From positions 1 through 51,165 of the IMG/VR virus record IMGVR_UViG_3300042506_000517: a stretch of DNA of 51,165 nucleotides. One strand, 5' to 3'. The DNA comes from a virus (lineage: Duplodnaviria > Caudoviricetes). The notes beneath the pieces are model-generated. The model worked only from the letters and a program-made list of their open reading frames with translations, was not told the origin of the DNA and made no database searches. Made by a program: the position numbers and the translations under genes. Shown piece after piece: positions 8,194 to 46,958 of this stretch. Position 1 is the stretch's first letter, and each line of letters starts with the position of its first letter.

Positions 8194-9195
8194 TTATGCG
8201 GATATTATATAAGGATCTCCAATAGTGCCAGATCCTTGACTATTCAATATTGCATAATTTATTCTAGCAATTACATCATCATATGATGACCATGCACTAA
8301 CCACAGTTTCAGTTGTACAACAATCATTAATATCTAATTTAGGCGAAGTCTTCGTAATTCTTTCACAATTATTTGCATTTGAAGTTGTTAAAAATGCATC
8401 GTTATATCTAATAGTCGCAACTGTTTGTGGTGTTGCGGCGCCACAAACCATAGTTGTTGCCGTAGTACCATAAATTTCCATTATCCCCGCTCCTGTGTTG
8501 GTTTCATTAATCTCCATTACTACACTAATATATCCTGGAGGACATGTAGGTTGTGATCCTGTACCATCCCAACATGGATCACACAATGGAGCGTCATCAC
8601 ATAGTGATTGACCCGAACAAGATCCTGGAGATCTTAATTCAACATAATAAAATACTTCAGGTGTCGGCGTTGGAGTAGGTGTAGGTGTCGGCTCAGGTGT
8701 TGGTGTAGGTGTCGGTGTAGGTGTCGGCTCAGGTGTTGGTGTAGGTGTTGGTGTTGGTGTCGGCGGTGGCGTTGGTGTAGGTGTAGGTGTCGGCTCAGGT
8801 GTAGGTGTTGGTGTCGGCGGTGGCGTTGGTGTAGGGGTCGGTGTAGGTGTAGGTGTCGGCTCAGGTGTAGGTGTTGGTGTAGGTGTTGGTGTTGGTGTCG
8901 GCGGTGGCGTTGGTGTAGGGGTCGGTGTAGGTGTAGGGGTCGGTGTAGGTGTAGGTGTTGGTGTTGGTGTAGGTGTAGGTGTAGGTGTTGGTGTTGGTGT
9001 TGGTGTTGGTGTTGGTGTTGGTGTTGGTGTTGGTGTAGGTGTAGGTGTAGGTGTAGGTGTAGTACCGGGCGGTGAATCTACGTCAATACATGCAATATTA
9101 TCATTGGTGAATGTTGCATACGCATAATTACCAACAGCAGCATAAACATTGTTTATGTCAACTGAATATCCATAAAGTACATTTTTATTAAACAT
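8194..9195 (-). CDS. Pro-Thr repeat protein with Cys-rich C-terminal domain
   Basis: Long (PT)n linker followed by Cys-rich region; N-terminus looks like part of a propeller repeat. Confidence 0.7.
8659..9063. repeat. hexanucleotide tandem repeat (GGTGTN on + strand) encoding (PT)n, tract 1
   Basis: Directly visible. Confidence 0.95.
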
Positions 9196-10021: not shown

Positions 10022-12042
10022 AATGTAGAAATTAAATTATCAATGGTTGTACCGACATAAGATAACAAATCCACTAATGGAGTAGGTGTCGGTGTAGGTG
10101 TAGGTGTTGGTGTTGGTGTTGGTGTTGGTGTTGGTGTTGGTGTTGGTGTTGGTGTTGGTGTTGGTGTTGGTGTCGGCTCAGGTGTAGGGGTCGGTGTTGG
10201 TGTCGGCGGTGGCGTTGGTGTAGGGGTCGGTGTAGGTGTAGGTGTCGGCTCAGGTGTAGGTGTCGGTGTTGGTGTCGGCTCAGGTGTAGGTGTCGGTGTT
10301 GGTGTCGGCGTTGGAGTAGGTGTTGGTGTTGGTGTAGGTGTTGTATCATTGAATGTTATTGTACCTGTTGAAGATGAATTATCACCGGCAGTTGATATAT
10401 ATTTAATCATTTTATAACCACCTGATGTGATGGGAGTAGTAGTATAATCCGTAGTACCATTTATTGTTGGATCAGAATAAGAACTAGAGAATCTAATTAT
10501 TACACATCCTGATGCACCTTTACCACCAAGTGCAATTTGTGTATCATTATCTCTACCAGATGCACCACCGCCGCCGCCACCGCCAGATCCAGAATTTGCA
10601 TTATAACCATCCATCTTAGTGTCTGTATTTAAAACAACTAACCCGCCATTACCACCAGTATCTCCAGATCCGGCCAATCCGGGCCCGACAGTAGATAAAC
10701 CTCCGCCGCCACCACCCGCAAAACCTTCATTATATGCGGATGCAACCCATGATGGTAATGGTGGACTGTAAAAATAAGCATTTCCACCGTCGCCACCGGA
10801 CTCTCCCGCATTACCACCAGTTGTTAACCCGAGGCCACCACCACCAGACCTTTTACCAATATCGTAATAACCAGTACCACCAAATGTACTTGCCGTTCCA
10901 ACTTCATTATCATCGGCTCCTGCGCCGCCAGCATTAAGGCCATTATTAATACCCGGTGGAAATACTGTGCCATAATAGGAATAACCGCCAAAACTTCCAC
11001 CTGTTTTGGTTAATGTGTCAAATATAGAAGTCTGACCATTTTCATTATTACTTGATCGACCAGCTAGTTGTAAAGTATAAGGTGTACCAGTTGTAGCAGA
11101 AAAACTACCATATCCAACAGTACCACCGCTGCCACCACCGCCGGCGCCTCTAGTAGCTGATCCACCTGTACCACCGCCACCAACTACGAAGTATTCAACT
11201 GTATAAGTTATTGGTGTTGGTGTAGGTGTAGGTGTCGGTGTAGGTGTTGGTGTTGGTGTTGGTGTTGGTGTCGGTGTCGGTGTTGGCGTTGGTGTCGGTG
11301 TTGGCGTTGGTGTTGGCGTTGGTGTAGGTGTAGGTGTAGGTGTAGGTGTAGGTGTAGGTGTAGGTGTAGGAGTTGGTGTTGGACTTGGTGTTGGACTTGG
11401 TGTTGGAACTGTAGCGTCACATTCTTCATTTGAATATTTTTCTTGATAATTAGAAAAATAACTTCCGCTAAGTATTAAATTTTCATTTCCGTCATCTACT
11501 ATTAGATAACTAGAATCGTATTGATTGTCTATTATTGTTACACTATATGGCGAAATTTTTTCTCCGAAATTAATTCGGGGAATTGTGAATACATCCATTA
11601 CATCTGTCAAAAGTCTGTATGTAGTGTCTAAATTGAAATTTTCTACACCCCATAATTGAGTTGGATTATTATATGTGTTATAAAATAATTGTTTATTTGT
11701 ACTATATACCAATCGCATATAAGTACCATCCGTATTAGTTGGATTAGATGTTGAATTATAATATTGATTACCAACAGGAAAAAATGTGCCTGTAATGTTT
11801 AAACCACGATGATATTGAACAAAATCATCACTTTGTTGTTGTAGTGCTAAATCACAATAACTGTTTGTTATAAATAAACTTGTACCGTCGCCGTAATCAA
11901 TATAAATATGAGATATCGATCCACTTAATGATCCAGACATCCATAATATTAAATCCGTAGCTTCAATATTTGTAGGATTCCAGATTTTATTAGCAACAAA
12001 TGGTGTAACTTGAACATCATCTCTGTTTAGACTTTTAATCAT
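10018..12042 (-). CDS. virion protein with two PT tracts flanking a glycine-rich domain
   Basis: N-terminal domain similar in style to 12055..13161; [10 protein letters not shown]...[10 protein letters not shown] glycine-rich domain typical of tail fibres. Confidence 0.75.
10078..10343. repeat. (PT)n hexanucleotide repeat, tract 2
   Basis: Directly visible. Confidence 0.95.
11212..11406. repeat. (PT/PS)n hexanucleotide repeat, tract 3
   Basis: Directly visible. Confidence 0.95.
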
Positions 12043-34986: not shown

Positions 34987-35368
34987 TGGTGGACATAAAG
35001 GGAGTCGAACCCTTGTCTTTAAGACCTTATCATAATTAGACTACGTGTGTATACATTTTTTAGTTGTTAAAAACAATTATATTAAATATAAAAACTAATT
35101 GTTCTAAAGATTTACAAAATACTCAATCAACAACGCAAATCAAATTGTTGATATAGCCTGATATTTTACACCCAATATAATTATCAGACATCATTATATT
35201 GAATGCGCAACCTTAAGCTGCCAATGCTACTGCTTCACGGGAGGTGAAGTTATAGCTAATTACATTATCTTCTGCAGTTAATGTTTTGATAGAAATTTTA
35301 AGAGGCCAACTATCATCCTCTACACGCCTAACTAATCAATTATCTTAAATCGATACCAGTATATGCCC
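34987..35368 (-). ncRNA. ssrA: tmRNA; tag reading frame AEDNVISYNFTSREAVALAA* at 35213..35275
   Basis: 5' GGGCATA pairs with 3' TATGTCC-ACCA with G3.U; T arm GGGTTCGACTCCC; GCA resume codon after TAACT; tag ends in LAA. Confidence 0.92.
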
Positions 35369-35376
35369 ATAAATTC

Positions 35377-35628
35377 TCAAAGATCAAAAAATTCTTTATA
35401 AGATATTGTTTCATCCAACCCAAGTTCTCGTCTCATATTAGCAAATAACTCTTTGCCTCTTTCAACTGAAACCGGCTGTTTTAACTCTTCTCTTTTAATA
35501 TCTTTAATAGTATTCTGTATTTCACCACGAATTCTATTAGATTCGTGTGGATTATTACTATCATCCGCTTTATCTAAAGCATCTTGTAATTCTTTTAACT
35601 TATTTTTTAAATCTTGCAATTTCTTCAT
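35377..35628 (-). CDS. hypothetical protein
   Basis: 83 aa, TATTTATA 3 nt upstream. Confidence 0.6.
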   Translation of the reverse strand: MKKLQDLKNKLKELQDALDKADDSNNPHESNRIRGEIQNTIKDIKREELKQPVSVERGKELFANMRRELGLDETISYKEFFDL

Positions 35629-35659
35629 TCTTATAAATATATAAGAAATATTCTAAAAG

Positions 35660-35733
35660 TGGAGCGGGTAGAGGGAATCGAACCCTCACATCAACCTTGG
35701 CAAGGTCGAAGGCTACCACTACATCATACCCGC
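35660..35733 (-). tRNA. tRNA-Gly(GCC)
   Basis: Cloverleaf, loop TTGCCAA, encoded CCA. Confidence 0.92.
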
Positions 35734-35740
35734 TTTAAAA

Positions 35741-35815
35741 TGGTGGACCGTAAGAGAATCGAACTCTTCCCTAAAGCTTGCAAAGCTCCCGTGCTACCAC
35801 TATCACTAACAGCCC
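35741..35815 (-). tRNA. tRNA-Ala(TGC)
   Basis: Loop TTTGCAA, G3.U70, CCA. Confidence 0.9.
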
Positions 35816-35823
35816 ATTTAAAA

Positions 35824-35852
35824 ATCTTACACCAATATATAGTGTTTGTCAA
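35824..35852 (-). promoter_or_regulatory. sigma70-type promoter
   Basis: TTGACA-17-TAAGAT just upstream of tRNA-Ala. Confidence 0.65.
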
Positions 35853-35861
35853 ATCAAAAAA

Positions 35862-35947
35862 CGGCGCAAACTACGGGAATCGAACCCATCACCGCTGATA
35901 ACTTAAGTTCAATCCTAAGCCAACGTTCTCACCAGATTGCAGCTAGC
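35862..35947 (-). ncRNA. tRNA-like RNA with extended anticodon arm, ending in CCG
   Basis: T arm GGGTTCGATTCCC, imperfect acceptor stem, CGTTG/CAGCG stem enclosing 23 nt. Confidence 0.55.
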
Positions 35948-35955
35948 ATATAAAA

Positions 35956-36031
35956 TGGTCGGGATGGAGAATTTTGCAATCTCAACCTCCTGTCTCCAAA
36001 ACAGGCCGTCTACTTTTGACATTACATCCCG
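35956..36031 (-). tRNA. tRNA-Pro(TGG), atypical T loop
   Basis: C1:G72, A73, loop TTTGGAG, CCA. Confidence 0.85.
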
Positions 36032-36038
36032 ATTAAAA

Positions 36039-36112
36039 TGGTTGGGGATGATGGAATCGAACCACCACAAGCAGATTCAAAGTCTGCCGCACTACCATTA
36101 TGCAAATCCCCA
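36039..36112 (-). tRNA. tRNA-Gln(TTG)
   Basis: Loop CTTTGAA, U1:A72, CCA. Confidence 0.92.
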
Positions 36113-36123
36113 GTTACTAAAAA

Positions 36124-36199
36124 TGGAGCGTGTGGTGAGGTTTGAACTCACGACATCAAGTTTGGAAAACTCGTACTCTACCAACTGAGTTACACACGC
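36124..36199 (-). tRNA. tRNA-Gly(TCC)
   Basis: Loop TTTCCAA, CCA. Confidence 0.92.
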
Positions 36200-36205
36200 A
36201 AAAAA

Positions 36206-36297
36206 TGGCGGTGAGGGAGGGATTCGAACCCTCGGTGGCTTTTAAGGACCACAACAGTTTAGCAAACTATCTCTTTAGACCGCTCAGACACCTCACC
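36206..36297 (-). tRNA. tRNA-Ser(GCT)
   Basis: Loop TTGCTAA, long variable arm, G73, CCA. Confidence 0.92.
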
Positions 36298-36380
36298 GTA
36301 AAATTTTGACAATCTCTGATTTCTTCATGGGACGATATTATCAGTCCTCAGTTCCAATGTCAAGTGGAGTTGTATTAAAA

Positions 36381-36467
36381 TGGCGGAAGCAACAGGAATC
36401 GAACCTGTGAGGGTTTATGGCCCCAGCTGTTTTCAAGACAGTTTCCTCGACCTACCGGACTACTTCC
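36381..36467 (-). tRNA. tRNA-Ser(TGA)
   Basis: Loop CTTGAAA, long variable arm, G73, CCA. Confidence 0.9.
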
Positions 36468-36482
36468 ATATAAATTAAAAAT

Positions 36483-36567
36483 TGGTGGGCATAGAGGGAC
36501 TTGAACCCCCACGGATTGCTCCCCGAGCTTCTAAGACTCGTGCGGCTGCCAATTACGCCATATGCCC
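36483..36567 (-). tRNA. tRNA-Leu(TAG)
   Basis: Loop CTTAGAA, variable arm, CCA. Confidence 0.92.
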
Positions 36568-36574
36568 AATAAAA

Positions 36575-36648
36575 TGGTCGGCCACGTCAGAATTGAACTG
36601 ACTCCACATGAACCCAAATCATGTATGCTACCGTAACACTTGTGACCG
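36575..36648 (-). tRNA. tRNA-Pro(TGG)
   Basis: C1:G72, loop TTTGGGT, CCA. Confidence 0.88.
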
Positions 36649-36655
36649 ATTAAAA

Positions 36656-36731
36656 TGGTAGGTGGTATAGGATTTAAACCTATGACATTTTGCGTGTAAA
36701 GCAAATGCTCTATCAACTGAGCTAACCACCC
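36656..36731 (-). tRNA. tRNA-Val(TAC)
   Basis: Loop TTTACAC, CCA. Confidence 0.88.
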
Positions 36732-36752
36732 ATTTAAAAATTGTTATATACT

Positions 36753-36859
36753 TTATGTCATTATCGCCAGATGGGTTCTGTATTTCAGCATAACACCCAG
36801 TGACCGATCAAATGTTTTAACTTATGTTGGGGACATCAGATAGAGTTTCAACCCCGTTC
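36753..36859 (-). ncRNA. unidentified structured RNA, copy 1 (head of tRNA array A)
   Basis: Homologous to 46556..46681 with 26-nt and 16-nt identical blocks and covarying stems. Confidence 0.7.
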
Positions 36860-36907
36860 GTTATATTTCTAATTTACCATACTTCGTCAAATTGTCAACC
36901 ACTAAAA

Positions 36908-36943
36908 TCAAAAACCCATCATTCTTTTTAAGAGTGACGGGTT
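36908..36943 (-). terminator. intrinsic terminator of attenuator A
   Basis: AACCCGTCA-CTCTT-AAA-AAGAA-TGATGGGTT followed by T-rich run. Confidence 0.75.
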
Positions 36944-36970
36944 GTATATTTTTAGCAAACAACCTCGTAC

Positions 36971-37024
36971 TCAACTTCCTGATGGGAGTTGACTGGCTTG
37001 ACTAGGTTGTGAAATTAAATTCAT
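36971..37024 (-). CDS. putative leader peptide A, MNLISQPSQASQLPSGS
   Basis: 17-codon ORF directly upstream of overlapping hairpins and terminator; residues match tRNA array A. Confidence 0.7.
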   Translation of the reverse strand: MNLISQPSQASQLPSGS

Positions 37025-37067
37025 ATTCTTACTAATATATAGTGTTTGAAATTGAAAATCAATAAAA

Positions 37068-38435
37068 TTATTTACATTTGAATAGATTTTTAATTTTTTC
37101 AGTTACCGTTTTTTGTTTAACTACTGGTTCGGGTTTATATGCGTTAGTGTTGTTGAGTAATTTAATTTCATTAATTACTGGCTCATTAGGTACTGGTCCA
37201 TATGGAACTGAATTGCCATAAGTGTTACTCATTGGCCACCATCCGCCTAAATTTTTCAATAAATTATCGGGTGATACATTAATATTATTTTCTTCTATAA
37301 CAATATTTTTAAATATAGATGATAGGTCAGGTAAATCTCTATCCATACTATATGCTAAAAACACTCCATCCCAAGCAGCATATTTTCCTGGTTTCCACTT
37401 CCATGTTCCTTTACCAGTTGTTACTACATTATTATTCAATACAACTAAATTGTGATGATATGCATAATTTACCGCCCACCATTCATTGCCATATTGTCTC
37501 ACATAATTCTGCGCACTTAATCTAATAAAACATGGAACATTAATTGCACTGTTTTGTTCTACGATAGTATCAATATTTTTTCCTGTATCAACATAATAAC
37601 ACATTCCTTCAAATCCATCAAAATTATTATGTCTTATCAAAGCTCCTTTTGTATTAGCAACACTAATACCAGCCAACCCTGAAAATTGAGTTTTACCTGC
37701 GTCACCCCTAAATGTACATTGTTCAACCGTACAACCAGTTGCAAATATTTTACCGGCTAAATTTCCACCTACTTGAACATGTACAATTTGTTCAGTATCA
37801 TATTCTGGATATCTATTGTTTCTGCCCGGTGAATGAAAATCACATCTTCTTACAGATGTTCCTTTTGAACCATCCTTAGAATTCTTTGATAACAATGATA
37901 TAATAATAAATGATGTAGCATTGTCTTTACCCACATTGAATCCTTTAAATTCACAATCTTCATATAGTGTATTACTACCAAATGTGGTACAACCTGCAGT
38001 TGTCAATTCATTGCCTTTAGCTTCATTTATTTCATCATAGTTACCGTCAAACGTTATACCTTTAAATACAATATCCTTACAATCAACACGACCATCACCA
38101 CCAGGACCAACGGCTTGAACCATTATTAATTGATTGCCATTAACTGCCAAATCTTTTCTACCACTCAAATGTTTGGATAATTTTAAAATTGTTTTACCTT
38201 TACCTTTTCCAATTATTGTAACACCACTTTCATTTTGTTTTGGATTAAACCCCCACAAAATACCACTTTTTAATACCTTTTCTGGATCTGTTTCACCGAT
38301 TCCTTCTCCTCCAATATAATATGTACCTTCATCAAGTTCACATTTATTGTTTTCCATTATACACTTATTGATTGCATATGCGGAGTTTACTTTTATATCA
38401 TTTGATTTTGCACCGTATTGTTCTGGTTTACTCAT
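37068..38435 (-). CDS. right-handed beta-helix (pectate lyase-like) protein; start likely MSKPEQ
   Basis: YGAK...N..AI...GTY, TIIGKG...TIL, ITFDGN, repeated xCxF turns; AAGGA SD-like sequence upstream of this ATG. Confidence 0.7.
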   Translation of the reverse strand: MSKPEQYGAKSNDIKVNSAYAINKCIMENNKCELDEGTYYIGGEGIGETDPEKVLKSGILWGFNPKQNESGVTIIGKGKGKTILKLSKHLSGRKDLAVNGNQLIMVQAVGPGGDGRVDCKDIVFKGITFDGNYDEINEAKGNELTTAGCTTFGSNTLYEDCEFKGFNVGKDNATSFIIISLLSKNSKDGSKGTSVRRCDFHSPGRNNRYPEYDTEQIVHVQVGGNLAGKIFATGCTVEQCTFRGDAGKTQFSGLAGISVANTKGALIRHNNFDGFEGMCYYVDTGKNIDTIVEQNSAINVPCFIRLSAQNYVRQYGNEWWAVNYAYHHNLVVLNNNVVTTGKGTWKWKPGKYAAWDGVFLAYSMDRDLPDLSSIFKNIVIEENNINVSPDNLLKNLGGWWPMSNTYGNSVPYGPVPNEPVINEIKLLNNTNAYKPEPVVKQKTVTEKIKNLFKCK

Positions 38436-38507
38436 ATATTTTTCCTTTTGTATAAACGAAAAACCTGTCATTTGATGACAGGTTTACAATTAATATTTTT
38501 CTTTTTA

Positions 38508-38648
38508 TTATTTACTACCACTTGGTCTCGGAGTCCCAGTTGGCTTTGGTGTGCCTGTTGGCTTTGGTGTGCCTGTTGGTTTTGGTGTGCCTGTTGGTTT
38601 TGGAGTTGAATTAGGAGTCCCAGTTGGTTTAGGTGTTGGTGTTGGCAT
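38508..38648 (-). CDS. 46-aa (TPKPTG)n repeat peptide (frame differs from ORF track)
   Basis: MPTPTPKPTGTPNSTPKPTGTPKPTGTPKPTGTPKPTGTPRPSGSK; repeat variation is synonymous in this frame. Confidence 0.7.
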   Translation of the reverse strand: MPTPTPKPTGTPNSTPKPTGTPKPTGTPKPTGTPKPTGTPRPSGSK

Positions 38649-38692
38649 AAATTATATATTTCTTTCTTCAAATATACATATATTGTACAAAT

Positions 38693-38724
38693 AAAAAACC
38701 GTTAACTTTTTACAGTTAACGGTT
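38693..38724 (-). terminator. intrinsic terminator after outer-membrane protein gene
   Basis: AACCGTTAACT...AGTTAACGGTT plus T run. Confidence 0.8.
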
Positions 38725-38749
38725 GTAATACTTTATTTTAATTTAAGAA

Positions 38750-39436
38750 TCAGAATGTATACTTAACACCTGCGGAATATAGAACTTCAGCAGTCAATTC
38801 TTCAGTAGCAAAACGGTATTTAGCAGTACTAAAGTTGTTGTCAATTACACCAACTTCAAGATATGGTACAAAATTGCCAATTGGACGAGATACATTCAAC
38901 TTGGCAGTAACAGCATCATAACGTTCAAACTTAACGAGTTCTGCAGCTGGAGTTGCATTAAACCCAAATGGTAGTGCAAATGTACGATACACACCAACAC
39001 CAGCACCAGCTTGTTCTAGGTTAATATCATAAGCACCACGAACATATGGTGTTACCCATTTATTCTGTGCTTCCAACTTTACACCAAATTCTGTGGAATT
39101 CTTAATGCCAAATCCACCTGCTTGATGACGAGTTGCAGTCGCATCCAATCGCAATGTCAACCATTCAAAGGTCTTAATACCCTTACCTGTACCAACTGTC
39201 CAATGTGATTGATCTACACCGTCCTTTGGCAACAACACACCACTAACATATACATCAGCATACTTTAGTGACTTTACTGCGGCAAAACCTGCATAAGCAG
39301 TACCTTCTGCACGACTTACACCGTTAACGATGTATTGGTTATTATAACCTGCATCAAATGTCAATGATGATGCGTCTTCTGCGGTTGCGGATGATGCTGC
39401 AAAAAGAGCAGCCAATACTAATACTAGTTTCTTCAT
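38750..39436 (-). CDS. outer-membrane beta-barrel protein
   Basis: Sec signal peptide (ATA-E), alternating amphipathic strands, C-terminal AGVKYTF beta-signal. Confidence 0.8.
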   Translation of the reverse strand: MKKLVLVLAALFAASSATAEDASSLTFDAGYNNQYIVNGVSRAEGTAYAGFAAVKSLKYADVYVSGVLLPKDGVDQSHWTVGTGKGIKTFEWLTLRLDATATRHQAGGFGIKNSTEFGVKLEAQNKWVTPYVRGAYDINLEQAGAGVGVYRTFALPFGFNATPAAELVKFERYDAVTAKLNVSRPIGNFVPYLEVGVIDNNFSTAKYRFATEELTAEVLYSAGVKYTF

Positions 39437-39646
39437 ATTTATTTTATTTTAACTTTCTTGTTTCTGTTTAACCGATAAACTTCACTCAAAGTTTATTCAC
39501 TCAACTTATTCATCATACATCGATCTTCAAAAATATCAACTTATTATATAATGTCAGTCTAAAAATAAATATTGAATTCATTTTATAAAAATTAATAATA
39601 ATTTCTACACAATATATATCTATATATAAAAAACTATTTTACGCTT

Positions 39647-40447
39647 ATGAATACTAATATTACAGCAAATGCCACAGTTACAAAAAAATTAGACGTTACA
39701 AAATTAATTACGTACTTAGCAGTTCCAATTATTTTTTTAGGTCTAATTGTCTATTTTGTATTCTTAAATAACAGTTATAAAAACTTGACGGATAAATTTA
39801 CAAAACAAGTTGAAATTGTAAATAGTCAAAATTTAATCATAACAAACATATCACTGAAAAATTCAGAACTATCCACGTTAATTAAAAATTATGATCAAAA
39901 ATTTAGCTTCCTACAAACAAATGTAACACACCTAAAACAACTTACAGACAATCTAAAAAAATCATCTGATGATAAAGACATAAAAATTAAATCGCTTGAA
40001 CAAGAAAAAGGATCACTAGAATTAGATGTCAAGTCACTACGCAATACTATAGTACAAATGACAGCAGAAATCGTAGAATATAGCGACGAATTGAAAAAAG
40101 CAAAAACTGAACCCGAACAAAATGATTTGATTAAAAAGATCGTTACACTCACTTCAGAAAGAAATTTCTTGCAAGATCAAGTCAAACAATATGAAAAAAT
40201 TATTGCTGAATTAAGAAAAGAAAATACCAATTTAACCGCTAAATTAAGAGAAAATCTCAAAAAAGAAGGATACGAATTCAACCATCAAATTGGTGAACAT
40301 CCAAAAGGAGCAGAATTATTAATGAAAATTTCCAGAGAAAATTTAAATAAAAAATTGGACGAACTAAATAAATCAAAAGAAAAAGAAGAACCAAAAATTG
40401 AAGAAAAACCCAAAAAACAAGGGTTTTTTAAGAATCTTTTCAAATAA
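39647..40447 (+). CDS. membrane-anchored coiled-coil protein
   Basis: One TM helix then long heptad region. Confidence 0.7.
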   Translation: MNTNITANATVTKKLDVTKLITYLAVPIIFLGLIVYFVFLNNSYKNLTDKFTKQVEIVNSQNLIITNISLKNSELSTLIKNYDQKFSFLQTNVTHLKQLTDNLKKSSDDKDIKIKSLEQEKGSLELDVKSLRNTIVQMTAEIVEYSDELKKAKTEPEQNDLIKKIVTLTSERNFLQDQVKQYEKIIAELRKENTNLTAKLRENLKKEGYEFNHQIGEHPKGAELLMKISRENLNKKLDELNKSKEKEEPKIEEKPKKQGFFKNLFK

Positions 40448-40459
40448 AATTATACAATT

Positions 40460-40933
40460 ATGCCATACGAATACCACGCAAAAGTTACAGAAGTTATAGA
40501 CGGTGACACAGTTGTTATTGATATTGACCTCGGATTTGATGTTGTCTTTATAAACCAAAAAGTACGACTTTTAGGAATTGATACCCCAGAAAGCCGTACT
40601 TCAGACAAAACAGAAAAAGCGTTTGGCGTAGCAAGCAAAGAATACGCAAAGAAATTTGTTGAAGCTTGCAAAGACAAAAATGTAGTCATTAGAACCCATA
40701 TCAGTGATGATGTAGATTCCAATGGCAGAGAGAAATTTGGTCGTCTTTTAGGTGAAATCATCAATCCAGTCACCAAAAAGGTTCTAAATGATGAACTAAT
40801 TACTAATGGTTATGCCGTCCGTTATATGGGCGAAAATAAAGATAAAGTAAAAGATCAACACCTAAAAAATAGAAAACGCCTCATTGACGAAGGCGTTGTG
40901 AAAATGTCTTATAAAGACGCTGGTATACTATAA
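40460..40933 (+). CDS. thermonuclease (SNase) family nuclease
   Basis: VIDGDT, VRLLGIDTPE, KFGRLL, LITNGYA. Confidence 0.92.
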   Translation: MPYEYHAKVTEVIDGDTVVIDIDLGFDVVFINQKVRLLGIDTPESRTSDKTEKAFGVASKEYAKKFVEACKDKNVVIRTHISDDVDSNGREKFGRLLGEIINPVTKKVLNDELITNGYAVRYMGENKDKVKDQHLKNRKRLIDEGVVKMSYKDAGIL

Positions 40934-40948
40934 AAATAGTATTCTATA

Positions 40949-42475
40949 TTATCTAAGTACTGTAAATTTCAAGCTCTTAATATTGAGCTTGAAATTTTTA
41001 TTTTGCACTTTGCTCAATACTAATTTAATTGACTTTGGATATCCAGATAAAGATGTATTCAAATTATTTGTCAATGATTGTTGACCAATACCAATTGTCA
41101 TTGGAAATTCATGTGCAGCATTTAAATTTGTATCTGGTACTCTACCATCCAATACATTAATACGTCCAATATAATTAGTCTGATTTACATATACACTAAT
41201 ATTAAACTTGCCCGCATATGAAATTGGACCTGTTTCAACCGTAAATACTGACAACTTAGAATCTACATTCAACAAATCTTTTAATTGTTGATTTTCAGAT
41301 ATATCCAATACAAGTCCATCTTTTGTCAATTCACCACTTACAGGAATTGTTACTGACTTTGGTATAGTTTTAACAACCGTAGAAGTCAATTTAATAGGTT
41401 CATCAGACGGTGGTTGATATGTAATATTAGTAAGTTTAGTGACTATATCCTTAACAGTTACCTTTAAGGGACTACCATCTATGTCTGTATATGTATATTC
41501 TTGTTGTCCCCAAGGACCATTTGGATCAGGCATTTCATTCTTATACAATGACCAAATACGATCAATATTACCATGATGCATAAAGAATATAGGATCATTC
41601 GCAGCATATCTCAATGTTCCCATATTTCTATTATTACCAAAACGTGTGCCTACCCAATCATGTCCATTATTATGTGGTCCTTGTTCCAATAACCCTTGTC
41701 CACTTGGTGTAGTTGGATTTTCTACCGCTTTACCACCAAAAAGTTCAAATGGAGCTTGTAAAATCGCATTTATATAATCACGACTCATATACCACTTTGT
41801 TTCCGTAATGTGTTGCTTAGAATCAGCACTTACTTCATTACTAGGGTCCATTGTTGGTTGTAAAATAGATGGCTTTCTATTACCGTCATATAAAGCCAAA
41901 TTATCAAAACCAAGACTGTCCGCCTGTACCATATCTTCTTGCGTCAAATCATATCCAAATAATGGACTCGCCAATCCAGAATCTTTACGAAGCTTTGTGT
42001 TTGGTATCTCTTGATGATTACTCCAATCCCAATATGGATACGCAAATGCATCCCCATTCCATCCAAAATTAGTCTTTAATATATTATCCAATATACGTTC
42101 CAAGAAGTAAACATATCCACGATGCCATGGCAAAAAATGCCAACTCCAATGCACTTGTACCATTGATACTCCTGAATTTGTACAATGATACGCATGTAAC
42201 TTAGCATAATTCTCCCACTGCAATGTACTGTTCAACGCTATATCCTTACGCATATATCCAACTGCACGACACAAATTCTTTACTTCATCATCACTCAAAT
42301 CATAAAAACTCTTACGAATTCGTGGCGGTTCATTTTTAAAATTAAACCTCTTGCCACCAGTCGCTGGTCCACACGTTGGATCATTAATCGGTTGTTTAGA
42401 TGTTGCATTTAAATTTAATCCAAGTGTACCCGTAAGTAACCCAGACTTTAAAAAAGTTCTTCTTGTTGTATCCAT
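40949..42475 (-). CDS. Tat-exported tyrosinase/polyphenol oxidase
   Basis: TRRTFLK Tat motif; CuA HAYHC...VHWSWHFLPWHR; CuB HNNGH...DPIFFMHHGNIDRIW. Confidence 0.9.
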   Translation of the reverse strand: MDTTRRTFLKSGLLTGTLGLNLNATSKQPINDPTCGPATGGKRFNFKNEPPRIRKSFYDLSDDEVKNLCRAVGYMRKDIALNSTLQWENYAKLHAYHCTNSGVSMVQVHWSWHFLPWHRGYVYFLERILDNILKTNFGWNGDAFAYPYWDWSNHQEIPNTKLRKDSGLASPLFGYDLTQEDMVQADSLGFDNLALYDGNRKPSILQPTMDPSNEVSADSKQHITETKWYMSRDYINAILQAPFELFGGKAVENPTTPSGQGLLEQGPHNNGHDWVGTRFGNNRNMGTLRYAANDPIFFMHHGNIDRIWSLYKNEMPDPNGPWGQQEYTYTDIDGSPLKVTVKDIVTKLTNITYQPPSDEPIKLTSTVVKTIPKSVTIPVSGELTKDGLVLDISENQQLKDLLNVDSKLSVFTVETGPISYAGKFNISVYVNQTNYIGRINVLDGRVPDTNLNAAHEFPMTIGIGQQSLTNNLNTSLSGYPKSIKLVLSKVQNKNFKLNIKSLKFTVLR

Positions 42476-42478
42476 ATT

Positions 42479-42646
42479 TTATTTTGTTTTATTTGTTACC
42501 CAACCAATTCGATGTTTATACATCCAATCAGTCAATGCCTTTTCAAATCCTATATCATTACCTTGCTTTTCACTTTCAATCCATTTATGCTTTTCTATCT
42601 CATTCTTTAATTCCATAAACTTTTGATATAGATTATCTTTTTGCAT
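42479..42646 (-). CDS. 55-aa DUF4032-like protein (not in ORF track)
   Basis: MQKDNLYQKFMELKNEIEKHKWIESEKQGNDIGFEKALTDW...; HKW..SE..G.D.G...A..DW signature. Confidence 0.7.
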   Translation of the reverse strand: MQKDNLYQKFMELKNEIEKHKWIESEKQGNDIGFEKALTDWMYKHRIGWVTNKTK

Positions 42647-42701
42647 ACAAAAATAAATACAAATTTCAAACGCAAATGTAACATTTTTGTTTATTTAAAA
42701 A

Positions 42702-42779
42702 TGGAGTCCCGTGTTGGATTTGCACCAACGATTTTAGAGTTTTGCAGACTCTCGCTTTTGTCTACTCAGCCAACGGGAC
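42702..42779 (-). tRNA. tRNA-Cys(GCA)
   Basis: Loop CTGCAAA, U73, CCA. Confidence 0.9.
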
Positions 42780-42799
42780 ATAAAAATATAATATCAAAG

Positions 42800-43714
42800 T
42801 TACCAAGCCCTACATGACCAATACCTGGCTTTAGTACGTGGACCAGGATTATCACAATTATGTCTTGCTCTAAAGTTTTTTCTACGTGCTGGATTATTCT
42901 TTTTTATGGTCATTCTTTTACCTTTAGCTGAAGATCCACCAAATCCAAAATTTACCTTAACCACTTTTCCTTTAGGATTTTTAACGTATACTTTAAATTT
43001 CTTGACATCACCTTGCATTCGTTTACCAAGGCTCACTTTACGACCACGATATTCCGCTTCACATAATGGTTGTTTATATTCTCGCATGAATTGAACAAAT
43101 TCTTTTATATCTTGTTCACTTTCAACATCATATTCTTCTATATTGTCGTCATCTTCTAAACCAGGTGTAAGTTTTTTTGAAGTACGAGATACAATTCCTA
43201 ACTTTTTAAAAATAAAAGATATAGCTTGACGTGTTACTCCTAGTTTTTTTGCAATCTCATCATGCGTCATTCCACTATTATACAAATCTTTAATTTGTTT
43301 CAAATCTTCAGGTTTTACTTTTAACCGATGTAATGGTTGTTGATTTTTTGGTTTTATTCCTGCTTTTTTTAAAGCAGCATATACACTGTGCGGACTGACA
43401 TTAAGTTTTTTTAAAATTTCTGAAAATGACACTCCGCTTTGATATAAATCAACAATTTGTTTATGAATTGGTTTAATAGCATGTTGATTTTTTGGTTTTA
43501 TTCCTGCTTTTTTTAAAGTAGCGTACACACCGTATGCACTAACATTAAGTTTTTTTAAAATTTCTGACAATGCCACTCCGCTTTGATATAAATCAACAAT
43601 TTGTTTCTGAATTTCAAGTGGTAGTTTCATACCAATTTCATTTAAAAACAATTCTTCTTTTAAAGATTGTAATTCTATATCATCAAAAAAATTTCTGTAT
43701 GTAAAAGGAATCAT
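42800..43714 (-). CDS. tandem HTH repeats fused to a basic C-terminal phage domain
   Basis: Two 48-aa repeats plus a third HTH; KKFKVYV...VNFG...RRKNFRARH.C...ARYWSC. Confidence 0.7.
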   Translation of the reverse strand: MIPFTYRNFFDDIELQSLKEELFLNEIGMKLPLEIQKQIVDLYQSGVALSEILKKLNVSAYGVYATLKKAGIKPKNQHAIKPIHKQIVDLYQSGVSFSEILKKLNVSPHSVYAALKKAGIKPKNQQPLHRLKVKPEDLKQIKDLYNSGMTHDEIAKKLGVTRQAISFIFKKLGIVSRTSKKLTPGLEDDDNIEEYDVESEQDIKEFVQFMREYKQPLCEAEYRGRKVSLGKRMQGDVKKFKVYVKNPKGKVVKVNFGFGGSSAKGKRMTIKKNNPARRKNFRARHNCDNPGPRTKARYWSCRAW

Positions 43715-43761
43715 AATTCATTATAAATATAATACACTTTAAATTAAAGTGTATTTTAAAA

Positions 43762-43837
43762 TGGAGCCTCCAGTAGGTACCGCCTCCGTTGGTTTCATCA
43801 TTACCAATGATATGTAATACTTTTATAATATGAAGAC
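43762..43837 (-). tRNA. tRNA-Thr(GGT), T stem degenerate (possible pseudogene)
   Basis: Loop TTGGTAA, acceptor GTCTTCA/TGGAGGC, CCA; T stem mismatched. Confidence 0.6.
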
Positions 43838-43888
43838 AAATAAAACTTTAAATTCTATCTTGTATCTACTCCAACATATATATCAAAT

Positions 43889-44671
43889 ATGTCTACACAA
43901 ACAAATACATCCACTCAAATAAACAATTCCGCTACCGCAACATCTGATAAAAATTCAGCAAGTGTTTCTTATACAAATACCGCAGAAGCTTCTGCAGGCG
44001 CAAGTGTAGGAAATAAAAACGCATCAATAGGTGTTGAAACATCAGTTAAAACTGGTACAGAAGCATCCGCTGCCGGTGGACTTGATGGTAACAACGTCTA
44101 CGCAAACGCAAGTTATAGTAGCGGTACAGAAGCTCACATTGTTGTAGATGGTAAAGTACAAAGTAATGGTGTAGGTGTTGCAGGTACTGCAGACGCTTAC
44201 GCAGTCAGTGGTACAAAAGCATCCGCAAATGTTCAAGCTGGTGACAAAGGTGTCGCAGTTGGTGCAGAAGGTTCTATTGGTACTGCTGTAGGTGTTGACG
44301 CTTCAGGTACAGCAAATGTAAGAGGCGCATCAGTTACCGCAGGTTCAGGAGTTAGTGTAGGTGAACAAGTTGGTGGTGGTGGTTCCGCTCAAGCCACTAT
44401 GGATAAAGGTAAAGTTACCGTTGGTGTAAGTGGTGACGTTGCAGTATTAGTTGGTGTAAAAGTAGATGTAAGTACTACAATTGATACAAATAAAGTTGTA
44501 CAAGATGCTAATACAGTCGCAAAAGCAACTCAACCAGTAGTTCAACAAACTACCAATGTAGCAAATACCGCCGTCAAAGAAACAACAAATGTTGTAAATA
44601 ATGCAGGTAATGCAATTAATGATGGTGCCAAAAAAGCAGGCAACTCAATCAAAAAAGCATTCAGATTCTAA
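43889..44671 (+). CDS. Gly/Ala/Ser/Val-rich repetitive beta-strand protein
   Basis: 260-aa ORF with strong codon bias, convergent with tRNA array B. Confidence 0.8.
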   Translation: MSTQTNTSTQINNSATATSDKNSASVSYTNTAEASAGASVGNKNASIGVETSVKTGTEASAAGGLDGNNVYANASYSSGTEAHIVVDGKVQSNGVGVAGTADAYAVSGTKASANVQAGDKGVAVGAEGSIGTAVGVDASGTANVRGASVTAGSGVSVGEQVGGGGSAQATMDKGKVTVGVSGDVAVLVGVKVDVSTTIDTNKVVQDANTVAKATQPVVQQTTNVANTAVKETTNVVNNAGNAINDGAKKAGNSIKKAFRF

Positions 44672-44673
44672 AA

Positions 44674-44750
44674 TGGTACACCCGGCAGGACTTGAACCTG
44701 CAACCTTCTCGGTAGAAACGAGTTGCTCTATCCAATTGAGCTACGAGTGC
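44674..44750 (-). tRNA. tRNA-Arg(TCT)
   Basis: Loop TTTCTAC, CCA. Confidence 0.88.
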
Positions 44751-44756
44751 ATTGAA

Positions 44757-44826
44757 TTTGTTAGTAGTTATGTTCTCACCAGTGATCACTGAGTAAAGGG
44801 AATTGAACCCAACATTTACTAACAAA
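44757..44826 (-). ncRNA. permuted tRNA-like RNA (T arm precedes D-like element) closed by a long terminal stem
   Basis: TTTGTTAGTA/TACTAACAAA stem, ATGTT/AACAT, GGGTTCAATTCCC, CTGGTGAGAAC. Confidence 0.5.
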
Positions 44827-44828
44827 AA

Positions 44829-44902
44829 TGGTTGGCTATCACGGTACCGCCCCGTGTTCTTTCGATTATCAGTCGAATGCTCTACTATTGAGCTAATAGC
44901 CA
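44829..44902 (-). tRNA. tRNA-Ile(GAT)
   Basis: Loop CTGATAA, T loop GGCGGTA, CCA. Confidence 0.88.
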
Positions 44903-44909
44903 ATTGAAA

Positions 44910-44985
44910 TGGCGAGGTATATGGGTGCTGCCCCCACTATCTTTTCCGTGACAGGGAAATGAGTCTGCTGTTCCTCTTATACCCC
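44910..44985 (-). tRNA. tRNA-Asp(GTC)
   Basis: Loop CTGTCAC, G73, T loop GGCAGCA. Confidence 0.88.
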
Positions 44986-44991
44986 AAAAAA

Positions 44992-45066
44992 TGGTAGGGC
45001 TCTACGGTAACGATCCGTATTCTACTGGTTAAAAGCCAGTTGCTTCACCGTTAAAGCTTGAACCCC
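44992..45066 (-). tRNA. tRNA-Lys(TTT)
   Basis: Loop CTTTTAA, T loop ATCGTTA, CCA. Confidence 0.88.
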
Positions 45067-45074
45067 ATTGAAAT

Positions 45075-45153
45075 TGGTGCAAGTGGTGGATACTGCCTCC
45101 ACACGAATATTCTGATTAAGAGTCAGATGCCCGTCTATTGTAGCTTCACTTGC
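45075..45153 (-). tRNA. tRNA-Lys(CTT)
   Basis: Loop CTCTTAA, T loop GGCAGTA, CCA. Confidence 0.85.
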
Positions 45154-45239
45154 ATTAAAAAATTGTATCTACTATTGTCAACGAACTATAATCATCTTAC
45201 CACACTTTATCCGCCCGTCAACAATCTTATTAAAAAATA

Positions 45240-45377
45240 TTCTGAACAAATCAACTTTATATGAGTGGTAGCTGCACCCACTCTCCGTATTCCCAAATTA
45301 ACCGTCTGGCCACATTCAAGGGCTTTCACTTGGATAGTTGATACCGGAGTATAGCGTTGCCTTCGCCTAGTTCAGAA
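45240..45377 (-). ncRNA. unidentified structured RNA inside array B
   Basis: Terminal TTCTGAAC/GTTCAGAA stem plus several internal complementary pairs. Confidence 0.5.
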
Positions 45378-45382
45378 AAAAA

Positions 45383-45457
45383 TGGTGGCTCAGGTCAGAC
45401 TTGAACTGACAACACGAAGTTCTTCAGACTTCTGCTCTACATTGGAGCTACTGAGCC
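45383..45457 (-). tRNA. tRNA-Phe(GAA)
   Basis: Loop CTGAAGA, CCA. Confidence 0.9.
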
Positions 45458-45467
45458 ATTAAAGTAA

Positions 45468-45548
45468 TTGACAAGTCAAAGGAATTGAACCTTTTCGGAA
45501 CAGAGTCGCCTGCTCCTTTACCACGCCCTGCGCACTAGCACCTGTCAA
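45468..45548 (-). ncRNA. tRNA-like RNA without CCA
   Basis: TTGACAGGT/ACTTGTCAA stem, GGAGCAG/CTGTTCC arm, T arm AAAGGTTCAATTCCTTT. Confidence 0.5.
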
Positions 45549-45552
45549 AATC

Positions 45553-45695
45553 AAGATGTATGGTTGGATTCGAACCAACGGCTACTTTTACAACCGTAAC
45601 ATGACGGATTGTTTTTTACAACCTAACATAAGATTTTTACGGGCTTACCCCATAGTTAGGTACTCTGCTCTGCCAACTGAGCTACATACAATCTT
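45553..45695 (-). ncRNA. tRNA-like RNA with a large structured insert replacing the anticodon arm
   Basis: Canonical D arm TAGCTCAGTTGGCAGAGC, T arm GTTGGTTCGAATCCAAC, TGTATG/CATACA stem, no CCA. Confidence 0.6.
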
Positions 45696-45700
45696 TAAAA

Positions 45701-45786
45701 TGGTGGGGTATGTAGGTAATGCGCCTACCGAGCCTTTCAGCGCCAGATTTACAGTCTGGACCATCTCTTTAATGGTATAATACCCC
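45701..45786 (-). tRNA. tRNA-Tyr(GTA)
   Basis: Loop CTGTAAA, long variable arm, CCA. Confidence 0.88.
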
Positions 45787-45807
45787 GAAAAATTATTTAC
45801 GGAAAAA

Positions 45808-45882
45808 TGGCTCTGGGAGAATGAATTGAACACTCATAAGGCACATTAACAGTGTGCTGCATTACCATTATGCTATCCCAGA
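45808..45882 (-). tRNA. tRNA-Asn(GTT)
   Basis: Loop CTGTTAA, G73, CCA. Confidence 0.9.
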
Positions 45883-45890
45883 ATTGAAAT

Positions 45891-45968
45891 TGGCTCCAGC
45901 CCTTGGCTCCGCCCCAAGCTCGACACGGTTTAACAGACCGCCGGTTACACTAAGTTTCCTTGACTGGA
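45891..45968 (-). tRNA. tRNA-Asn(GTT), second divergent copy
   Basis: Loop CTGTTAA, T loop GGCGGAG, CCA. Confidence 0.85.
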
Positions 45969-46029
45969 GTTAAAAAAATGTTTACTGGATTTCAACGAAC
46001 GTTCCATCTACTACTTATAACCTCGTCAG

Positions 46030-46059
46030 ATTATAACATTCAATGTCTATCAGTGTCAA
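46030..46059 (-). promoter_or_regulatory. consensus sigma70 promoter inside array B
   Basis: TTGACA-18-TATAAT with extended -10 TG. Confidence 0.7.
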
Positions 46060-46169
46060 TACATTACTTACTACTTCAACTATTGATTCAGATTCGAACT
46101 GAATTACTTCTGCTCATATGCAGTTGTTTTACCAATTAAACTACGTTCGCTGCCTTCACCTAATGTATT
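46058..46169 (-). ncRNA. tRNA-like RNA or pseudo-tRNA lacking a normal acceptor end
   Basis: D arm TAGTTTAATTGGTAAAAC, CTGC/GCAG with 6-nt loop, T arm TTCAGTTCGAATCTGAA, distal AATACATTA/TAATGTATT stem. Confidence 0.5.
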
Positions 46170-46177
46170 TGAAAAAA

Positions 46178-46252
46178 TGGCAAAGTGGGTGGGTAACGCT
46201 CCCACATAAAGCAGTTTTGGAGACTGCTGCATTTCTTGTCTGCCACCACCTT
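46178..46252 (-). tRNA. tRNA-Trp(CCA)
   Basis: Loop CTCCAAA, G73, CCA. Confidence 0.88.
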
Positions 46253-46259
46253 ACTAAAT

Positions 46260-46337
46260 TGGTGCTTCAATGAGGATTCGAACCCCAAACTCAATGTCCG
46301 TAGCATTGCGTGATATATCCATTTTCACCACCGAAGC
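46260..46337 (-). tRNA. tRNA-Arg(ACG)
   Basis: Loop CTACGGA, CCA. Confidence 0.9.
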
Positions 46338-46343
46338 ATAAAT

Positions 46344-46419
46344 TGGGGTGATATACGAGTGCTGCCCTCGTTCCGTGAGTTTCACAAACTCAAATGCTAA
46401 CTGTTACACCAATATCACC
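46344..46419 (-). tRNA. tRNA-His(GTG)
   Basis: Loop TTGTGAA, G-1:C73, CCA. Confidence 0.9.
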
Positions 46420-46431
46420 ATTACTATAAAT

Positions 46432-46513
46432 TGGAGCCGTTGACAGGATTCGAACCTGCGATGATTTTCCAGTTTACAAAACTGGTGTTTTCAACCACTC
46501 AACTCACAACGGC
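46432..46513 (-). tRNA. tRNA-Thr(TGT)
   Basis: Loop TTTGTAA, CCA. Confidence 0.9.
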
Positions 46514-46555
46514 GTTAAAATTACTTATACACATACCAAATAACAATAACCTCAG

Positions 46556-46681
46556 TTATGTCATTATCGCCCTATAGGTTCTGTATTTCAGCATAACACC
46601 CACGGACCAATCAATTGATTTTCCCAGTCTTTACCTTTGGTTACTGGCGGTGGCTCAACAGATGGAGTTTCAAGCCTGTCC
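46556..46681 (-). ncRNA. unidentified structured RNA, copy 2 (head of tRNA array B)
   Basis: Homologous to 36753..36859 with a longer variable hairpin; preceded by TTGACG-16-TACACT. Confidence 0.7.
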
Positions 46682-46814
46682 TTATCTTCTATAAGTGTAT
46701 CAGAAATTATTGCTTCGTCAACACCTTTTTAAAATTTCACTTTCATTGCCCAATGAACCGCTTACGCCGCTCACTGTTTAACTACTCTACCACACTCTCA
46801 AAGAACTTCAACAC

Positions 46815-46852
46815 AAAAAACAAAAAAACCGTCACTTATTCAGTTGACGGTT
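46815..46852 (-). terminator. intrinsic terminator of attenuator B
   Basis: AACCGTC-A-ACT-GAATA-AGT-GACGGTT followed by TTTTTGTTTTTT. Confidence 0.85.
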
Positions 46853-46880: not shown

Positions 46881-46958
46881 CTACACAATATCACCGCCAA
46901 CACATTCACAATCCGTAAATGTATTCCAACGCTTAATATGTGTATAATTAACTCTCAT
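46881..46958 (-). CDS. putative leader peptide B, MRVNYTHIKRWNTFTDCECVGGDIV
   Basis: 25-codon ORF whose last codons are complementary to the terminator 5' arm; residues match tRNA array B. Confidence 0.75.
   Translation of the reverse strand: MRVNYTHIKRWNTFTDCECVGGDIV

Follow-up and report, generated by a model that had tools for sequence, protein, structure and literature searches.

We analysed a 51,165-nucleotide (nt) stretch of viral DNA (hereafter the window; positions 1 to 51,165 of IMG/VR record IMGVR_UViG_3300042506_000517), which is part of a large tailed phage and encodes a primase, a baseplate wedge protein, a tape-measure-like protein, PhoH and Hsp20. Relatives of this phage measure 296-365 kb. 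The minus strand of the window carries 18 tRNAs and a transfer-messenger RNA (tmRNA), and the two tRNA blocks are each headed by a copy of the RNA element that is our subject, typically about 95 bases long (range across its family, 86-145 nt). A reading made from the letters alone (the sequence-only reading) had reported copies at 36753..36859 and 46556..46681, and we find both there on the minus strand. They share a 26-nt string exactly (36774-36799 and 46577-46602), and a 16-nt string (36753-36768 and 46556-46571) is likewise identical in the two, as reported; across the family, the latter is intact in only 12 of 81 contexts. Self-BLAST of the window aligns the copies over 66 nt at 88% identity (E 1.1e-16). 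The change in the 5' stem between the copies and the varying length of their middle hairpin are also as that reading described them. It had recognised no known RNA family, and indeed no Rfam family reaches its cut-off (best match on the copies, E 2.9 or worse), nor does the element have a significant Rfam match at eight homologue loci. The parts of the two copies are listed here, with bit scores from a covariance model (R1) built from the element's own family.

36762..36855, minus strand: core of copy 1 (type 1); R1, 108.5 bits
36829..36855, minus strand: predicted stem P1 of copy 1, formed by 36852-36855 and 36829-36832, with the loop L1 and 5' pseudoknot strand that it closes in
36838-36851, minus strand: loop L1 of copy 1; begins U-U-N-R-A, contains ACUC
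36833-36837, minus strand: 5' pseudoknot strand of copy 1
36811..36828, minus strand: short optional hairpin, A-tract and 3' pseudoknot strand (36811-36815) of copy 1
36762..36808, minus strand: irregular hairpin P3 of copy 1, with bulged G 36804, internal loop G(U/A)UA/GA and variable tip 36782-36787
46565..46677, minus strand: core of copy 2 (type 2); R1, 130.8 bits
46674-46677 with 46651-46654, minus strand: P1 of copy 2; L1 at 46660-46673, pseudoknot strands at 46655-46659 and 46614-46618
46623-46650, minus strand: P2 insert of copy 2; P3 at 46565-46611
46539..46565, minus strand: weak hairpin P4 after copy 2; fold -5.7 kcal/mol

Homologues and fold of the element

Searching viral and metagenome sequence with patterns and covariance models yielded homologues well beyond the two window copies, and these covary. 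The collection, drawn from pattern scans of viral contigs, 80 PhoH-linked loci, 185,579 prokaryote genomes and model searches of whole virus records, comprises 74 distinct full-length sequences: 22 of type 1 (like copy 1), 41 of type 2 (like copy 2) and 11 of type 3, from more distant phages. One outlier, L344, stands beyond the three types, and all family members are of phage type. Family size is a lower bound, as the metagenome scan reached 20 of its 64 parts and yielded 120 stretches where some 410 are estimated; remoter forms may also be missed, because all search patterns derive from the element's own family. In some of the scans most pattern matches were chance ones in coding DNA; these were removed by requiring the whole motif, and weak model matches in L590 (E 0.91), Mel-JY01 (E 0.011) and LR756508 (E 0.24) were dropped as lying in open frames or lacking the core. 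In a tree of 71 columns the three types form separate groups; support is strong for type 3 and lower for the other two.

Two of 95 matches in prokaryote assemblies are real elements, one in a Phycisphaerales and one in a Woesearchaeota metagenome-assembled genome. Because their cores are identical to a phage copy and the two assemblies are unrelated, we read them as mis-binned phage contigs that carry no host information. Cultured phages gave no blastn match to the element. We found no description of it in the literature searched, including the available text of a preprint (bioRxiv 10.64898/2026.09.22.753630), although it may be an unnamed entry among the 8,495 DNA-virus candidates mentioned in the accessible part of PMC10690425.

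The sequence-only reading had seen a 5' hairpin with a conserved loop and had missed the pseudoknot. We find that the 3' side of this loop pairs with five bases after a downstream A-tract, predicting an H-type pseudoknot on the 4-bp stem P1, which is followed after one or two bases by the irregular hairpin P3. Across the 74 sequences the pseudoknot cells are paired in 370 of 370 cases, where 2000 shuffles averaged 296 and never exceeded 317; there are eight haplotypes, and each of the five pairs is altered on at least one side. Because the anchoring expression had restricted the letters allowed in this count, we recounted the pairing on plain MAFFT alignments. The pseudoknot is 100% paired there both in 11 type-3 sequences, with four of the five pairs changed on both sides, and in 25 type-1 and type-2 sequences, with two of five so changed; slid controls gave 30-48% pairing. 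Judged by eye, L344 has an entirely different sequence on both sides of this helix, which pairs nonetheless. The predicted energy of single copies is no better than that of shuffles (z +0.2 to +1.1), so the structure rests on comparative evidence. On that evidence the element is an RNA family without an Rfam match, and its predicted pseudoknot is well supported.

The stems of P3, a long hairpin, covary; it has a bulged G and the internal loop G(U/A)UA/GA and ends in a variable tip. Part of its invariance is imposed by the search patterns. Between P1 and the A-tract, 2 to more than 40 nt are inserted, type 3 has an extra covarying hairpin on the 3' side of P3, and a P4-like hairpin, usually with a UGAG loop, was read by eye 3' of most type-2 copies. 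Many unpaired bases are nearly invariant; the ACUC of loop 1, for which we found no partner, is the most constant part of the element. Three further pairings were rejected. A kissing pair between loop-1 UCUG and P3 CAGA looks perfect in types 1 and 2, but UCUG occurs in 63 of 74 sequences and in no type-3 copy; an extension of P1 to seven pairs is displaced by the pseudoknot; and a UAU/RUR register for the P3 tip fits types 1 and 2 (94.6%), but type 3 favours UG-N/N-CA. The tip stays uncertain because its third pair is present in only 30 of 74 sequences.

The earlier suggestion of two T-loop-like UGAAA pentamers, one in each conserved loop, holds in part for the first only. In loop 1 the literal UGAAA is not fixed (63 of 74), yet the loop read one base earlier gives U-U-N-R-A in 74 of 74 sequences, once with the exact letters of a tRNA T-loop, and in 10 of 11 distant copies found without a 5' constraint; the outlier L344 lacks it. 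The second UGAAA is the variable tip of P3, found in 16 of 74, and so interdigitated T-loops are unsupported. The element probably carries one T-loop rather than two.

Attenuators, promoters and tRNA blocks

The sequence-only reading had overlooked what lies upstream of both copies. In each case a short ORF (open reading frame) and a terminator hairpin precede the promoter, and these regions resemble leader-peptide attenuators whose codons match the tRNA block downstream.

36971..37024, minus strand: predicted 17-codon leader ORF (leader 1); of the 16 residues that follow Met, 14 belong to block-1 tRNAs; conserved in relatives
36909..36943, minus strand: terminator hairpin and U-tract of leader 1
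36871..36898, minus strand: sigma70-like promoter before copy 1, TG-extended and with a spacer of 16 nt; conserved in 25 of 29 type-1 contexts
34987..36731, minus strand: tRNA block 1 (Val, Pro, Leu, Ser, Ser, Gly, Gln, Ala, Gly) and tmRNA
46881..46958, minus strand: predicted 25-codon leader ORF (leader 2); 19 of 24 residues after Met lie outside the block-1 set; conserved in relatives
46821..46852, minus strand: terminator hairpin and U-tract upstream of promoter 2
46694..46721, minus strand: sigma70-like promoter before copy 2, TG-extended and with a spacer of 16 nt; conserved in 34 of 34 type-2 contexts
42702..46513, minus strand: tRNA block 2 (Thr to Cys), with interspersed ORFs

A predicted antiterminator (-14.3 kcal/mol) that starts from the leader-1 stop codon competes with the terminator at 36909..36943. 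A scan of the window for sigma70-like sites is by itself not enriched (71 sites against 69.2 in shuffles).

Within the window, each copy does sit right after a promoter and right before a first tRNA, as had been claimed: tRNA-Val begins 21 nt past position 36753 and tRNA-Thr 42 nt past position 46556. This arrangement is not general: a promoter precedes just 1 of the 11 distant copies, and in several phages ORFs lie between the element and its usual neighbours, before or after it. Among 74 distinct contexts (29 of type 1, 34 of type 2 and 11 of type 3), type 1 has both terminator and promoter in 25 of 29, the other four following a tRNA and a small ORF. The terminator of type 2 lies further upstream of its invariably present promoter. 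Type 3 has a terminator no more than 130 nt upstream in 9 of 11 contexts (15-32 nt in eight). Types 1 and 2 start 10-21 nt after the -10 box. The element is thus typically the first unit after a predicted leader-peptide attenuator, with or without a promoter between.

Downstream, a tRNA follows in 67 of 74 contexts, and six of the remaining seven have less than 240 nt of flank; in the seventh, L228, two methyltransferase-like ORFs come first. The distance to the next tRNA runs from 16 to more than 700 nt, and that tRNA can be Val, Thr, Trp, Gly, Lys or Pro. ORFs are tolerated upstream of the element (in the four type-1 contexts and G007) and downstream of it (L228, L358, L359, L375, L275, L278 and L346). 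Methyltransferase-like ORFs also stand directly after the element and inside the tRNA block in G003 (~96200-97520, locus L266) and in L269 (532-1161).

Two leaders go with two element copies in the window phage, G002, G003 and G015, and a single leader that uses nearly all amino acids, the arrangement of distant relatives, goes with one copy in G007, G012, G013 and G014; in this comparison, copy number follows the number of predicted attenuated blocks. The tRNA blocks of G007 and G012 that have a promoter only, and the internal promoters of the window, have no copy, and we never found the element in the middle of a tRNA run away from a block head. Eleven measured blocks span 1.1-16 kb with 0-62% sense ORF, and their internal terminator-like hairpins are weak except for one stronger than -12 kcal/mol (G002). 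In two phages without the element, a second structured RNA occupies the same slot behind an attenuator: L602 reverse ~620-760 (G008) and L566 reverse ~11110-11250 (the block-2 head of G009). These two RNAs share two sequence blocks and are matched by neither the element models nor Rfam; by eye, the one in G009 also seems to open with a pseudoknot.

The element-bearing phages are large and uncultured, and here came mainly from freshwater samples. Of 22 runs listed as containing the copy-1 region, 18 are of RNA, and the source was always fresh, lake or river water. Contigs from RNA runs join the element to tRNA-Val and the leader region (X4, 36450-37014 in one contig; X5, 36630-37014). These contigs give weak support for expression, because they carry no strand, ends or level and DNA can occur in such libraries. 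Missing contig cover upstream of 37074 was dropped as a signal, as a comparison run has the same gap.

The arrays hold further features. Tracts at 46338-46431, 45883-46177, 45634-45807, 45067-45382 and 44903-44991 of the window appear by eye to contain more tRNA-like genes that ARAGORN and Rfam missed, several with an unusual T-loop in which GGCAG- replaces UUCG-. In the lineage of G007, a divergent RNase P class A-like RNA (RF00010-like) lies in the tRNA array (L113/L114, 5250-5531; E 1.4e-12 at 44 bits, where Rfam sets its cut-off at 100; a large part of the specificity domain does not align), and stretches similar to it precede tRNA-Ala in L121 and L126. Other conserved, apparently structured non-coding stretches, none of which reaches an Rfam cut-off, occupy tRNA spacers in L102, L107, L086, L095, L106, L113, L121, L126, L130 and L566. 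Between the tRNA blocks of the window, 40949-42475 (minus strand) encodes a Tyrosinase-domain protein (Pfam PF00264, E 7e-36), and 38750-39436 (minus strand) a 228-residue protein with TorF/Gcw_chp porin-like features. The latter has 77 relatives, is widespread in the phage group and is contig-covered in all four RNA runs examined; a search for the host through it led to no organism. Three tail-region genes (8650-9060, 10080-10345 and 11210-11405) contain internal short-period repeats, probably collagen-like or similar.

Possible roles at the head of tRNA blocks

We tentatively favour a role for the element as a cis-acting antiterminator, put-like or factor-loading, for the mostly untranslated tRNA blocks of 1-16 kb that it heads. 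Sequence comparison shows how the element folds, where it sits and that its copy number matches the number of attenuated blocks. We chose this reading because the element marks the entrance of long, mostly untranslated blocks, no boxA-like site follows it, and it has parallels with the put RNAs of phage HK022. Antitermination was one of four functions guessed by the sequence-only reading, and is the one we retain, as a proposal. Its distance to the next tRNA varies, so it is no fixed-distance guide for that tRNA, and no switch lies downstream of it. Untranslated operons, those of rrn among them, are described, in the part of the source available, as needing protection from Rho, through boxA complexes or put RNA (PMC12360218). 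On our proposal, a ribosome stalled on the leader would let polymerase pass the terminator, or the local promoter would fire. The element, transcribed first, would fold and modify the elongation complex, either by acting on polymerase directly, as HK022 put RNA does, or by loading host or phage factors. Transcription would then survive Rho across the block, and RNase P maturation of the next tRNA would later cut the element off.

Several points weigh against this proposal. The element is not identical to put in either sequence or fold. By the contexts compared, it is dispensable in some relatives: the block-1 head of G009 has a leader and promoter with no RNA element, and no match came from 26 of the 37 virus records searched, which were mostly small fragments. 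The measured blocks have 0-6 internal promoters, so the need for processivity would be less. A put-like element that overrides intrinsic terminators would cancel the block-1 attenuator, which lies ~9.6 kb downstream of copy 2, so its action would have to be Rho-selective or short-lived. The position at block heads could also be inherited history.

A bolder form of the proposal, which we hold to be rather unlikely, is that antitermination by RNA alone evolved independently a second time in this element. Its pseudoknot, bearing a T-loop, would grip the RNA polymerase of the host unaided by any protein and would form a two-part circuit with the tRNA-sensing attenuator. A shortage of tRNA would open the gate, and the RNA would take polymerase across as much as 16 kb of tRNA genes; a third fold of this kind would then be the unrelated RNA that fills the same slot. 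The put family of lambdoid phages is essentially the only known source of RNA antiterminators that need no protein, and we found no published account of how Rho termination is avoided when phages transcribe untranslated tRNA genes over many kilobases. Natural variants exist at every pseudoknot pair, so this compact RNA would offer a direct test of the question. Should its function prove to be that of a free RNA, a nuclease block or a ribozyme, it would still be a new family of structured RNA linked to a switch that senses tRNA.

The foremost of the other explanations, though itself unlikely, is that the element is cargo: a small RNA released by RNase P at the next tRNA that acts in trans, as a protein decoy or an inhibitor of a nuclease or stress response. 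With one copy per attenuated block, any tRNA shortage would induce it. The many nearly invariant unpaired bases, the loose spacing to promoter and tRNA and the 3' hairpin of type 2 all suit such an RNA, and the arrays do carry other RNA cargo (tmRNA, and the RNase P-like RNA in the lineage of G007). Against this, the element is never found within a tRNA run away from the block head, a second, unrelated RNA takes the same slot in two phages, no helix joins the 5' and 3' ends of the element, and no terminator of its own follows.

Two protective or processing roles appear improbable, in similar degree. The element may be a 5' roadblock, like an exoribonuclease-resistant RNA (xrRNA), that halts 5'-to-3' decay from the leader and shields the tRNA precursor. 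Its pseudoknot lies at the very 5' end of the precursor, the slot RNA of G009 seems by eye to begin with one too, and xrRNAs, as far as the accessible text of the source goes, depend on a pseudoknot and halt RNase J1 of bacteria as well (PMC8374639). Alternatively, it may be a new self-cleaving ribozyme that cuts the leader or 5' end off the precursor. Its compact pseudoknot, invariant unpaired bases and bulged G, the swapping of different folds in one slot, and the existence of tRNA-linked theta ribozymes in phages (reported in the available part of PMC10879173) fit this idea; no Rfam ribozyme matches, however, the nested double pseudoknot of ribozymes resembling that of hepatitis delta virus (HDV) is absent, the element stands 5' of the tRNA instead of at a 3' trailer, and RNase P already makes tRNA 5' ends.

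H-type pseudoknots with invariant loops are a common build of aptamers, but a ligand-sensing aptamer is very unlikely, as most contexts have no terminator or ribosome-binding site after the element and the switchable terminator lies upstream. Least probable of all is the idea, from the sequence-only reading, of a tRNA-elbow binder built from two interdigitated T-loops: one pentamer is present in all 74 sequences, but the second is the variable tip, the motif needs two according to the part of PMC4810234 available, the distance to the next tRNA varies from 16 to more than 700 nt, and L344 lacks even the first pentamer.

Comparison with known systems

By the features compared, the element falls outside put, boxA/nut, T-box, RNase P and HDV-like ribozyme RNAs. 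A T-loop is a pentamer closed by U1-A5, and the elbow binders (T-box stem I, RNase P and the L1 stalk) use two of them interdigitated, according to the portion of the source available (PMC4810234); the element shares with them, in sequence, one T-loop-like pentamer, whereas it has no second conserved T-loop and no Rfam match. Compared with T-boxes, it also has no terminator downstream, and the first tRNA varies. It matches neither RF00010 nor RF00011, and in the lineage of G007 the RNase P-like RNA is separate from it. Theta (HDV-like) phage ribozymes, in the accessible text of PMC10879173, resemble the element as pseudoknotted RNAs adjoining tRNA genes; the element differs in standing 5' of the tRNA at variable distance and in lacking a nested double pseudoknot with a J4/2 cytosine. 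With xrRNAs, as presented in the accessible part of PMC8374639, it shares at least one pseudoknot at the 5' end of a stretch to be protected. It differs in belonging to a DNA phage of bacteria and in its extra conserved hairpin domain. In xrRNAs a ring formed round the 5' end brings a 5'-3' exoribonuclease to a halt.

Like rrn boxA and lambda nut (PMC12360218, in its available part), the element stands at the entrance of a long untranslated transcript, but it is a large folded RNA and not a short single strand. A boxA-like pattern finds no site inside the element or within 100 nt downstream in any of 87 contexts, which sets the element apart from boxA/nut, and finds upstream sites in 6 of 43 type-2 contexts (6 of 87 overall). 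The same pattern marks minus-strand sites in the window at 35375-35385, just before the tmRNA, and at 46796-46806, between terminator 2 and promoter 2.

The put RNAs are, in the accessible text of their structure paper (PMC9378689), ~70 nt long with two stem-loops that form two abutting irregular domains, and that text never uses the word pseudoknot. They occur twice per genome, one just after a promoter and one ~270 nt downstream, and act over 10 kb without a tether (PMC9378689, same text). A put RNA binds the beta' zinc-binding domain of polymerase and, needing no protein factor, suppresses both pausing and termination. The element, at 86-145 nt and with an H-type pseudoknot as its first domain, departs from put in size and fold; it heads tRNA blocks behind attenuators where put heads early protein operons, and its antitermination is our interpretation. 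Types 1 and 2 occupy a put-like cis position after a phage promoter, in two copies, whereas type 3 is mostly without a local promoter and has one. The likenesses to put, as far as the available description goes, lie in architecture and layout: two abutting structured domains, of which the second is an irregular hairpin with unpaired conserved bases, and, as with putL and putR of HK022, two copies at the heads of two phage operons, placed near the promoter or a few hundred bases downstream.

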